Shown: positions 40,671 through 42,022 of the stretch, in pieces
Numbering within the stretch: the first letter of the stretch is position 1
How the letters are laid out: each line of letters opens with the position of its first letter
NCBI RefSeq assembly: GCF_003334335.1
Contig: NZ_QOWQ01000004.1
DNA: 64,000 bases
DNA from: Escherichia coli
Lineage (GTDB): Bacteria; Pseudomonadota; Gammaproteobacteria; Enterobacterales; Enterobacteriaceae
Strand: one strand, 5' to 3'
The notes under the pieces: generated by a model
What the model saw: the letters and a program-made list of their open reading frames with translations, nothing else
Database searches by the model: none
What the model was told of the DNA's origin: nothing
Program-made: the position numbers and the translations under genes

Positions 40671-40774
40671 CGTTCCATCTTTTGTTCGCCAAACTTTACG
40701 GCCTGTCTCATTCTTACGATTGCGGCAGGCCGTGTTATTATTGTCGTTTCTTATATTTTGACAGGAAGAGTATC

Positions 40775-41230
40775 TTGACTACTAACACTCATACTCTGCA
40801 GATTGAAGAGATTTTAGAACTTCTGCCGCACCGTTTCCCGTTCTTACTGGTGGATCGCGTGCTGGATTTTGAAGAAGGTCGTTTTCTGCGCGCAGTAAAA
40901 AATGTCTCTGTCAATGAGCCATTCTTCCAGGGCCATTTCCCTGGAAAACCGATTTTCCCGGGTGTGCTGATTCTGGAAGCAATGGCACAGGCAACAGGTA
41001 TTCTGGCGTTTAAAAGCGTAGGAAAACTGGAACCGGGTGAGCTGTACTACTTCGCTGGTATTGACGAAGCGCGCTTCAAGCGCCCGGTCGTGCCTGGCGA
41101 TCAAATGATCATGGAAGTCACTTTCGAAAAAACGCGCCGCGGCCTGACCCGTTTTAAAGGGGTTGCTCTGGTCGATGGTAAAGTAGTTTGCGAAGCAACG
41201 ATGATGTGTGCTCGTAGCCGGGAGGCCTGA
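40775..41230 (+). CDS. fabZ: 3-hydroxyacyl-[ACP] dehydratase FabZ
   Basis: ORF 40682..41230 trimmed to TTG 40775 preceded by aggaagag RBS, giving 151 aa ([28 protein letters not shown]...). Confidence 0.9.
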
Positions 41231-41233
41231 TAC

Positions 41234-42022
41234 GTGATTGATAAATCCGCCTTTGTGCATCCAACCGCCATTGTGGAAGAGGGCGCGTCAATTGGCGCGA
41301 ACGCACACATTGGTCCTTTTTGTATCGTTGGACCCCATGTCGAAATTGGTGAGGGTACCGTACTGAAATCTCACGTTGTCGTGAATGGTCATACTAAAAT
41401 TGGCCGCGATAATGAGATTTATCAGTTCGCCTCCATCGGCGAAGTTAACCAGGATCTGAAATATGCTGGCGAACCGACCCGTGTGGAAATCGGCGATCGT
41501 AACCGCATTCGCGAAAGCGTCACCATTCATCGTGGCACAGTCCAGGGCGGTGGATTGACGAAGGTGGGCAGCGACAACTTACTGATGATCAACGCGCACA
41601 TTGCGCACGATTGTACGGTAGGTAACCGCTGTATTCTCGCCAACAACGCAACGCTGGCGGGTCACGTATCGGTTGACGACTTCGCGATCATCGGCGGCAT
41701 GACCGCAGTCCATCAGTTCTGCATCATTGGTGCGCACGTGATGGTTGGCGGCTGCTCCGGTGTGGCGCAGGACGTCCCTCCTTATGTCATTGCGCAGGGT
41801 AACCACGCAACGCCGTTCGGTGTCAATATCGAAGGGCTGAAGCGCCGCGGATTCAGCCGTGAGGCGATTACCGCTATCCGCAATGCGTATAAGCTGATTT
41901 ATCGTAGCGGTAAAACGCTCGATGAAGTGAAACCGGAAATTGCTGAACTGGCGGAAACATATCCGGAAGTGAAAGCCTTTACCGATTTCTTTGCACGCTC
42001 AACGCGCGGTCTGATTCGTTAA
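41234..42022 (+). CDS. lpxA: UDP-N-acetylglucosamine O-acyltransferase
   Basis: 262-aa ORF with GTG start at 41234 and hexapeptide repeats. Confidence 0.95.

Follow-up and report, generated by a model that had tools for sequence, protein, structure and literature searches.

Genes and start codons between frr and lpxA

The window, by which we mean the whole stretch of 64,000 nucleotides of E. coli DNA that was analysed here, is K-12-like and covers the frr to accA region; over its 64 kb it differs from positions 161327-225326 of MG1655 (NC_000913.3) by 32 substitutions and 0 indels. A sequence-only reading of this DNA had assigned TTG starts to fabZ and cdsA and GTG starts to skp, lpxA and uppS. 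All of these equal the starts that RefSeq gives for MG1655 and strain E2865, and the bases were confirmed in the window; frr, which also begins with GTG, is a sixth non-ATG gene of the run and had been absent from that list. The features concerned are the following, all on the + strand.

31546..32103, +: frr, start GTG 31546, Shine-Dalgarno (SD) sequence AAGGA, as annotated
33577..34338, +: ispU/uppS, GTG 33577 followed directly by ATG 33580, a dual start in E. coli
34351..35208, +: cdsA, start TTG 34351, SD GGGGG, as annotated
39156..39641, +: skp, start GTG 39156, SD AAGGAG, as annotated
40682..40774, +: open 31-codon stretch in the lpxD-fabZ spacer, non-coding, lacking an SD, of variable length in relatives and with no homology in any solved FabZ
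40763..40768, +: fabZ SD AGGAAG, 6-nt spacer to the TTG, duplex energy -4.3 kcal/mol
40775..41230, +: fabZ coding sequence, 151 aa, start TTG 40775-40777, from annotation, Ribo-RET and INRI-seq, 80/80 loci and PDB 6N3P
41234..42022, +: lpxA, start GTG 41234, 3 nt past the fabZ stop, SD GGGAGG at -10.3 kcal/mol, 80/80 loci

The E. coli K-12 fabZ gene (b0180, 151 aa) and its neighbours, as described in RefSeq and EcoCyc, are the same object, down to coordinates and start codons; 5424 of 5426 complete E. coli genomes contain the fabZ region. In the RefSeq entry of strain E2865, ispU and rseP are flagged as frameshifted pseudogenes despite being essential (L001, 5183-5940 and 6822-8173), which probably reflects sequencing errors.

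For comparison we assembled 80 species-representative loci from the Enterobacteriaceae, Erwiniaceae and Yersiniaceae, with 61-80 loci compared for each of fabZ, cdsA, skp, lpxA and frr, and added six deeper lineages by exact protein look-ups. The contig scan matches all carry a FabZ of at least 93% identity, and the protein search matches listed are from Enterobacterales at 77% identity or above; Vibrionales, Pasteurellales and Pseudomonadales lie outside this sample. In Kluyvera genomosp. 3 YDC799 (L047, 8438-9195) the lpxD frame stops about 650 nt early and what is left of the gene appears as intergenic sequence, suggesting a frameshift or an error of assembly.

FabZ is initiated at the TTG at 40775

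The reading frame of fabZ is open upstream of its annotated start, where an ORF from a TTG at 40682 to 41230 would encode 182 aa, the segment 40682-40774 amounting to exactly 31 codons. The sequence-only reading had described this extension and had placed the functional start at TTG 40775, behind a good ribosome-binding site, and our analysis upholds both the description and the placement. The SD at 40763-40768 is well positioned 6 nt ahead of TTG 40775 with the duplex energy of -4.3 kcal/mol given above, compared to -0.7 kcal/mol, essentially none, for TTG 40682. Initiation-site profiling, which had been suggested as a check, is already published and agrees with this assignment: Table S2 of the INRI-seq study (PMC9825163) places the fabZ initiation site at MG1655 202101, equivalent to window position 40775, with peaks of 27-56 in 5/5 in vitro replicates, and the same table gives an in vivo Ribo-RET value of 239.6 for this site.

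The comparative data give the same result. The codon aligned to 40775 is TTG in 80/80 loci, and the tblastn alignments begin at residue 1 in every locus. Upstream of it the frame is open for anything from 5 to 61 codons across the 80 loci, 18 of which have a stop 5 codons upstream, and most of the loci have no in-frame start in this segment. A run of 31 open codons has a probability of (61/64)^31, or about 0.23, in random sequence and is thus unremarkable. Within E. coli, the 63-mer around the fabZ start is identical to the window in 5414 of 5424 genomes, and ATG or GTG at the start of an otherwise identical 63-mer was found in 0 of the 5424. The crystallised FabZ proteins, which are engineered constructs, start MTTN (E. 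coli, 6N3P) and MTTD (Y. pestis, 5BUX), and residues 1-27 of the extended ORF align to no solved FabZ. The N-terminomics table of TRAINSPOTTER (PMC13245402) holds no N-terminal peptide of FabZ, CdsA or LpxA.

A longer FabZ proteoform of 182 aa, initiated at TTG 40682, could be argued for from the open frame and from the 174-208 aa FabZ proteins that automatic callers often yield in public databases. It is effectively refuted by the missing SD at 40682, the variable and frequently interrupted frame in the relatives, the stable conserved hairpin and mapped RNA 3' end that lie inside the stretch (see below), the solved structures and the strong Ribo-RET peak at 40775; the combination that marks an N-terminally extended proteoform, an upstream start with a ribosome-binding site that is conserved in relatives, does not occur at fabZ. 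The extended public entries in our set (P0001, P0002, P0005, P0011 and P0026, of 174-208 aa; 196 aa in Yersinia, for example) are likely to be annotation artefacts that arise from the avoidance of TTG and translate the hairpin and leader, and the comparative data provide a clean rule for the true FabZ start against this frequent upstream mis-extension by gene callers. An in-frame AUC/AUU at -3 was also considered as a start and rejected, as it would leave an SD spacing of only 3 nt and as crystallised FabZ and all annotations begin MTT.

Initiation at the neighbouring non-ATG starts

The neighbouring genes have the properties of canonical GUG/UUG initiation sites, with an SD before the NTG codon, initiating ribosomes at the codon, and homologues that begin at the aligned position. 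Ribo-RET values at the annotated starts (PMC9825163) are 547 for frr, 120.9 for lpxA, 91.9 for skp, 9.3 for ispU and 7.5 for cdsA; in INRI-seq, skp reaches 126-153 and cdsA has a value of 0, so that the latter is detected in Ribo-RET only, and weakly; the support for ispU is weak as well. The ATG genes lpxD, lpxB and dnaE have a peak value of 0 in the same table. For frr, the N-terminal peptide from the GTG start was found by TRAINSPOTTER N-terminomics (PMC13245402). The INRI-seq table also lists an in-frame ATT 9 nt upstream of the frr GTG (192862) with INRI-seq and Ribo-RET signal, probably spill-over of the peak. Within skp, it has an out-of-frame GTG at +8, and TRAINSPOTTER gives an internal start at the ATG of Met60 (window 39333, MG1655 200659; peptide METDLQAK...).

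The uppS gene differs from the others in the run. Both of its N-termini, MMLSAT... from the GTG and MLSAT... from the ATG, were found by TRAINSPOTTER (PMC13245402). In 49 of 54 aligned relatives GTT stands in place of the E. coli GTG, with ATG as the next codon, on which basis the alignment identifies ATG 33580 as the conserved uppS start and GTG 33577 as an Escherichia-specific addition.

The cdsA TTG is the first possible start past the uppS stop, and codons 2-36 show coding periodicity (3.7/1.6/13.5 at codon positions 1/2/3). Mutagenesis has shown that this TTG is functional and that it is dispensable, the CTG at codon 2 also being able to initiate, and an ATG version of cdsA is reported to be toxic when over-produced (Hikage et al., 2024; PMC11448367). 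These authors argue that non-canonical initiation holds the essential CdsA at a low level, and name fabZ as another TTG gene. Their system concerns the same gene and the same TTG as cdsA of the window; fabZ differs from it in translation efficiency (1.53 for fabZ compared to 0.21 for cdsA).

The non-ATG state is conserved across Enterobacterales

Across the related species, the start codon is TTG in fabZ (80/80 loci) and cdsA (68/68) and GTG in lpxA (80/80) and frr (61/61), and among 78 skp loci it is GTG in 77 and TTG in one. The yardstick for this invariance was the four-fold degenerate sites of the same region, rather than other non-ATG genes of E. coli. In eleven genes of the region and in the same species, only 9 of 805 such sites (1.1%) never change, and a site shows about 3.5 different bases on average. 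Because the four-fold sites are saturated and the first base of the start has nonetheless never become A in 61-80 species, the comparison argues that the non-ATG codons are maintained by selection across Enterobacterales, the uppS GTG excepted.

The deeper lineages show how far this constraint extends. In Leminorella and Limnobaculum cdsA starts with GTG and skp with TTG, so that the base has been swapped and the codon is still non-ATG. All five genes have retained a non-ATG codon in Baumannia, as have fabZ, lpxA and cdsA in Blochmannia. In fabZ, Photorhabdus has TAG-ATG and Arsenophonus TCT-ATG at the aligned position, which moves the start one codon downstream and lengthens the SD spacer by 3 nt (L084, L089 9998-10003), and Xenorhabdus has the same shifted ATG, as judged from its protein N-terminus MS.... 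ATG is further found in lpxA of Photorhabdus and Arsenophonus, in frr of Blochmannia and Arsenophonus and, apparently, in skp of Arsenophonus. ATG is therefore tolerated in some backgrounds, since Morganellaceae-type lineages use it for lpxA and, in shifted form, for fabZ. The replacement of TTG by a shifted ATG with a 3-nt longer SD spacer in fabZ may be a compensatory trade.

Start-codon class, translation efficiency and clustering

Values for translation efficiency (TE) and mRNA abundance were taken from Burkhardt et al. (2017). The non-ATG genes of the region have TE values of 1.53 (fabZ), 1.51 (skp), 1.26 (frr), 0.31 (ispU), 0.21 (cdsA) and 0.19 (lpxA), and the ATG genes values of 0.92 (accA), 0.86 (bamA), 0.84 (pyrH), 0.37 (lpxD), 0.21 (lpxB) and 0.14 (rseP). 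There is no difference between the two classes (Mann-Whitney p = 0.48); the top value of the region belongs to fabZ, a TTG gene, skp and frr come next, and all three lie above every ATG gene. Start-codon class does not predict TE in this region, and a rare start is not a mark of low expression. This is a warning against reading 'rare start' as 'low expression', as the selected non-AUG genes include the best-translated ORFs of the region. The two classes do differ in SD strength, with a mean of -7.5 kcal/mol for the non-ATG genes compared to -4.4 kcal/mol for the ATG genes (p = 0.016), which fits the SD compensation described by Belinky, Rogozin and Koonin (2017).

Ten of the 56 annotated coding sequences in the window have a non-ATG start, and six of these fall among the ten consecutive genes from frr to lpxA. 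In shuffles restricted to the window, six in ten has P = 0.02 and five in eight P = 0.07. If 17-19% of genes are non-ATG, chance alone would produce 5-16 runs of this density in a genome of 4300 genes, for which reason the clustering as such, which was also noticed post hoc, is not remarkable.

A conserved hairpin in the lpxD-fabZ spacer

The 3' part of the lpxD-fabZ spacer is conserved far above the level expected of a spacer. It contains two further features.

40698..40733, +: GC-rich hairpin ACGGCCUG...CAGGCCGU followed by UGUUAUUAUUG, fold -19.7 kcal/mol, a terminator-like or 3'-end-protecting element
40737..40738, +: RNA 3' ends from Term-seq, class 'orphan' (MG1655 202063/202064; Adams et al., 2021, supplementary file 1)

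The hairpin is found in 80/80 loci in 63 distinct versions, with folding energies from -19.7 to -29.9 kcal/mol. Its lower stem, CGGCCUG/C(A/G)GGCCG, is invariant, and its upper stem varies in sequence with the pairing kept. As the upper stem could not be aligned by MAFFT for RNAalifold (79 sequences), covariation was judged by folding each sequence separately and by shuffling the interiors: 59 of the 63 interiors fold better than 95% of the shuffled versions of themselves and form 5-9 additional pairs. In nearly all loci 41-43 nt separate the hairpin from the fabZ start (42 nt in the window). Beyond these loci, Photorhabdus, Leminorella, Limnobaculum and Arsenophonus carry the hairpin too, and a degenerate form is seen in Blochmannia and Baumannia.

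With intrinsic terminators and 3'-end-protecting stem-loops this element shares a GC-rich stem, a U-rich tail and RNA 3' ends, the published Term-seq ends at 40737/40738 lying 4-5 nt past the stem. It is unlike a plain terminator in its interrupted U-tract, with 7 U in the 11 nt of UGUUAUUAUUG, in its invariant lower stem and downstream sequence and in its fixed spacing to the fabZ start; a terminator pattern scan picks out only a 5-bp sub-stem. The transcript drop expected of a terminator is likewise absent, the mRNA abundances across the hairpin being 1030 for lpxD, 925 for fabZ and 1241 for lpxA (Burkhardt et al., 2017). Because mRNA barely falls across it (1030 to 925), the hairpin would terminate only weakly if at all, and could instead act in RNA processing or stability. 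A scan of 40500-40900 against Rfam 15 at a permissive threshold returned chance-level matches only, to eukaryotic and archaeal models; a sigma-70 promoter scan of 39000-41400 found no + strand promoter in the lpxD-fabZ spacer, with counts not above those of shuffled sequences; the TERMITe supplements have no entry at the hairpin coordinates; and our literature search returned no paper tying lpxD or fabZ to RIL-seq, Hfq or a 3' UTR sRNA. Insertions of 100-180 nt occur in the lpxD-fabZ spacer of some loci (L009 9772-9900, L045 9761-9920, L079 and L083), always upstream of the hairpin, and resemble ERIC/IRU-type repeats, for example ...cccgggagcttgcgcaggtaagtgactggagtgagcc....

The fabZ start region

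Conservation continues from the hairpin into the fabZ start region. The SD block GACAGGAAGAGTAT hardly varies among 79 distinct sequences, and positions -15 to +26 of fabZ are almost invariant as GACAGGAAGAGUAU-UUG-ACUAC...CAUACUCU, the synonymous sites of codons 6-8 included; the only invariant four-fold site of fabZ is that of codon 7. The minimum free energy fold and the RNAalifold consensus both predict a short helix around the start.

40767..40797, +: predicted 7-bp helix AGAGUAU (40767-40773)/AUACUCU (40791-40797), with the UUG in a 17-nt loop

The arms of this predicted helix are identical in 82 of 87 sequences, again including the synonymous sites of codons 6-8. In Blochmannia there is one change in which both sides have altered and still pair, and one or two pairs are broken in Leminorella and Limnobaculum; because of these broken pairs in two genera, the helix is a predicted structure and not an established one.

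Discussion

The rare starts of fabZ, cdsA, skp and lpxA are real, are already annotated, are backed by published experiments and are kept by selection. They were known before and are nothing new in kind, and as a finding they matter little in themselves, the starts being in the reference annotation and the published initiation profiling being concordant with them. We consider it probable that these are ordinary annotated GUG and UUG starts of envelope and housekeeping genes, each of which forms one fixed part of a gene-specific initiation set-point. This account builds on where the starts lie, on the evidence that they are used both in vivo and in vitro, on how well they are conserved and on the difference in SD strength. 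For fabZ, the 30S subunit would be recruited by AGGAAG, 6 nt upstream of the start, in an A/U-rich and weakly structured leader, and FabZ would be made as a 151-aa protein from UUG 40775, with the stretch back to 40682 acting as an untranslated spacer. Selection holds the codon in a non-AUG state, paired with a stronger than average SD, and the final TE would be decided by the whole initiation region together with the context of the ORF, which may be why codons of this one class are found at both the highest (fabZ, skp, frr) and the lowest (lpxA, cdsA) efficiencies. The conservation suggests that selection acts on the initiation rate and that AUG would over-produce or mis-balance the protein, a view to which the published toxicity adds in the case of cdsA; the physical clustering of the genes would then require no shared mechanism.

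The set-point reading is in keeping with earlier work on start codons. Belinky et al. (2017) described a genome-wide start-codon selection that is weak and favours AUG, together with a subset of GUG starts under purifying selection, and found stronger SD sequences at non-AUG starts, as is likewise seen at the non-ATG genes of the window. Against their genome-wide trend towards AUG, the window genes are fixed as non-AUG across an order, which matches the purifying-selection GUG subset. Several observations count against the set-point reading. ATG is tolerated in the Morganellaceae-type lineages, and the N-terminomics table cited above lists no peptide of FabZ, CdsA or LpxA. TE does not differ by codon class, so that the data show no effect of the codon on expression. 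As the block from -15 to +26 is almost invariant, the T of the fabZ TTG may also owe its conservation to an RNA element and not to the strength of initiation.

The last of these leads to an alternative that we regard as improbable, in which the fabZ TTG is conserved as part of an RNA element that comprises the hairpin, the U-rich tract, the SD, the start and codons 6-8. Such an element would account for a nearly invariant block of 75 nt with a fixed spacing of 41-43 nt, for codon 7 as the sole invariant four-fold site of fabZ, and for a predicted helix that brackets the start. However, Photorhabdus and Arsenophonus keep the hairpin, and Photorhabdus the helix arms as well, with the start moved to an ATG one codon downstream; the start codon is thus separable from the RNA element. 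The helix, moreover, combines its one compensated change with broken pairs.

It appears quite improbable that the non-AUG codons are themselves regulatory, with a special sensitivity to the availability of IF3 or initiator tRNA, to temperature or to growth rate, by analogy with the AUU of infC. The autoregulation of infC by IF3 resembles the situation in the window in that a weak initiation codon is conserved in an essential gene; the infC codon, however, is a non-canonical AUU with a demonstrated feedback loop, while the window genes have canonical GUG or UUG codons and no known feedback. IF3 discriminates against non-canonical start codons, and a regulatory role would fit with the conservation of the non-ATG state, swaps between GTG and TTG included. 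CdsA is also reported to be up-regulated in the cold, though through its mRNA level (PMC11448367). Discrimination against GUG and UUG is only mild compared with AUU, and nothing in the data ties these genes to a signal of this kind.

The sequence-only reading had further proposed that rare starts tune stoichiometry within this long operon, an idea already voiced in the literature for cdsA (PMC11448367). The part that stands is that the codons are under selection and that the argument for a low CdsA level has been published; the lack of a TE difference between the two classes, a clustering within chance and the restriction of the uppS GTG to Escherichia speak against the rest. In its strongest form, in which the rare starts are coordinated across the operon as one programme for the stoichiometry of its lipid A and envelope enzymes, the proposal has only a slim chance of being correct. 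It could point to the conserved start codons and to the local enrichment within the window (six of ten genes, P = 0.02); against this, chance alone would place 5-16 such runs in a genome, the TE of the non-ATG genes covers the whole range from 0.19 to 1.53 with no difference from the ATG genes, and the uppS GTG is not conserved. The mRNA abundances of bamA (462), skp (1320), lpxA (1241) and lpxB (186) also show that the genes are not one uniformly transcribed unit. That the non-ATG starts are neutral frozen accidents, as the weakness of genome-wide start-codon selection (Belinky et al., 2017) might suggest, is highly implausible when the synonymous sites are saturated in the same species and the first base of five start codons has never become A in 61-80 of them.

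At fabZ, the conserved hairpin and leader are a modest lead and the only element here that could repay experiments. The dosage of FabZ is known to be a point at which the balance between LPS and phospholipid is controlled. As a tentative and rather unlikely proposal, the nearly invariant block of about 100 nt at 40698-40797 may act in cis as a hitherto uncharacterised leader through which FabZ synthesis is set or regulated, and with it the phospholipid/LPS balance, the UUG being an integral part. It might act, for example, as an S1 or standby-site enhancer, as a temperature- or factor-sensitive hairpin at the start codon, or as a processing site that uncouples fabZ-lpxAB from skp-lpxD. A putative arrangement of an insulating hairpin and a U-rich standby or enhancer tract, giving fabZ its high efficiency despite the UUG, is plausible. 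The segment +15 to +24 of fabZ (CUCAUACUCU, window 40789-40798) is also listed as a zero-mismatch off-target of a widely used antisense PNA against acpP (INRI-seq Table S5; PMC9825163), and fabZ CUCAUACUCU is thus exactly complementary to the acpP start region AGAGUAUGAG, which may be a coincidence.
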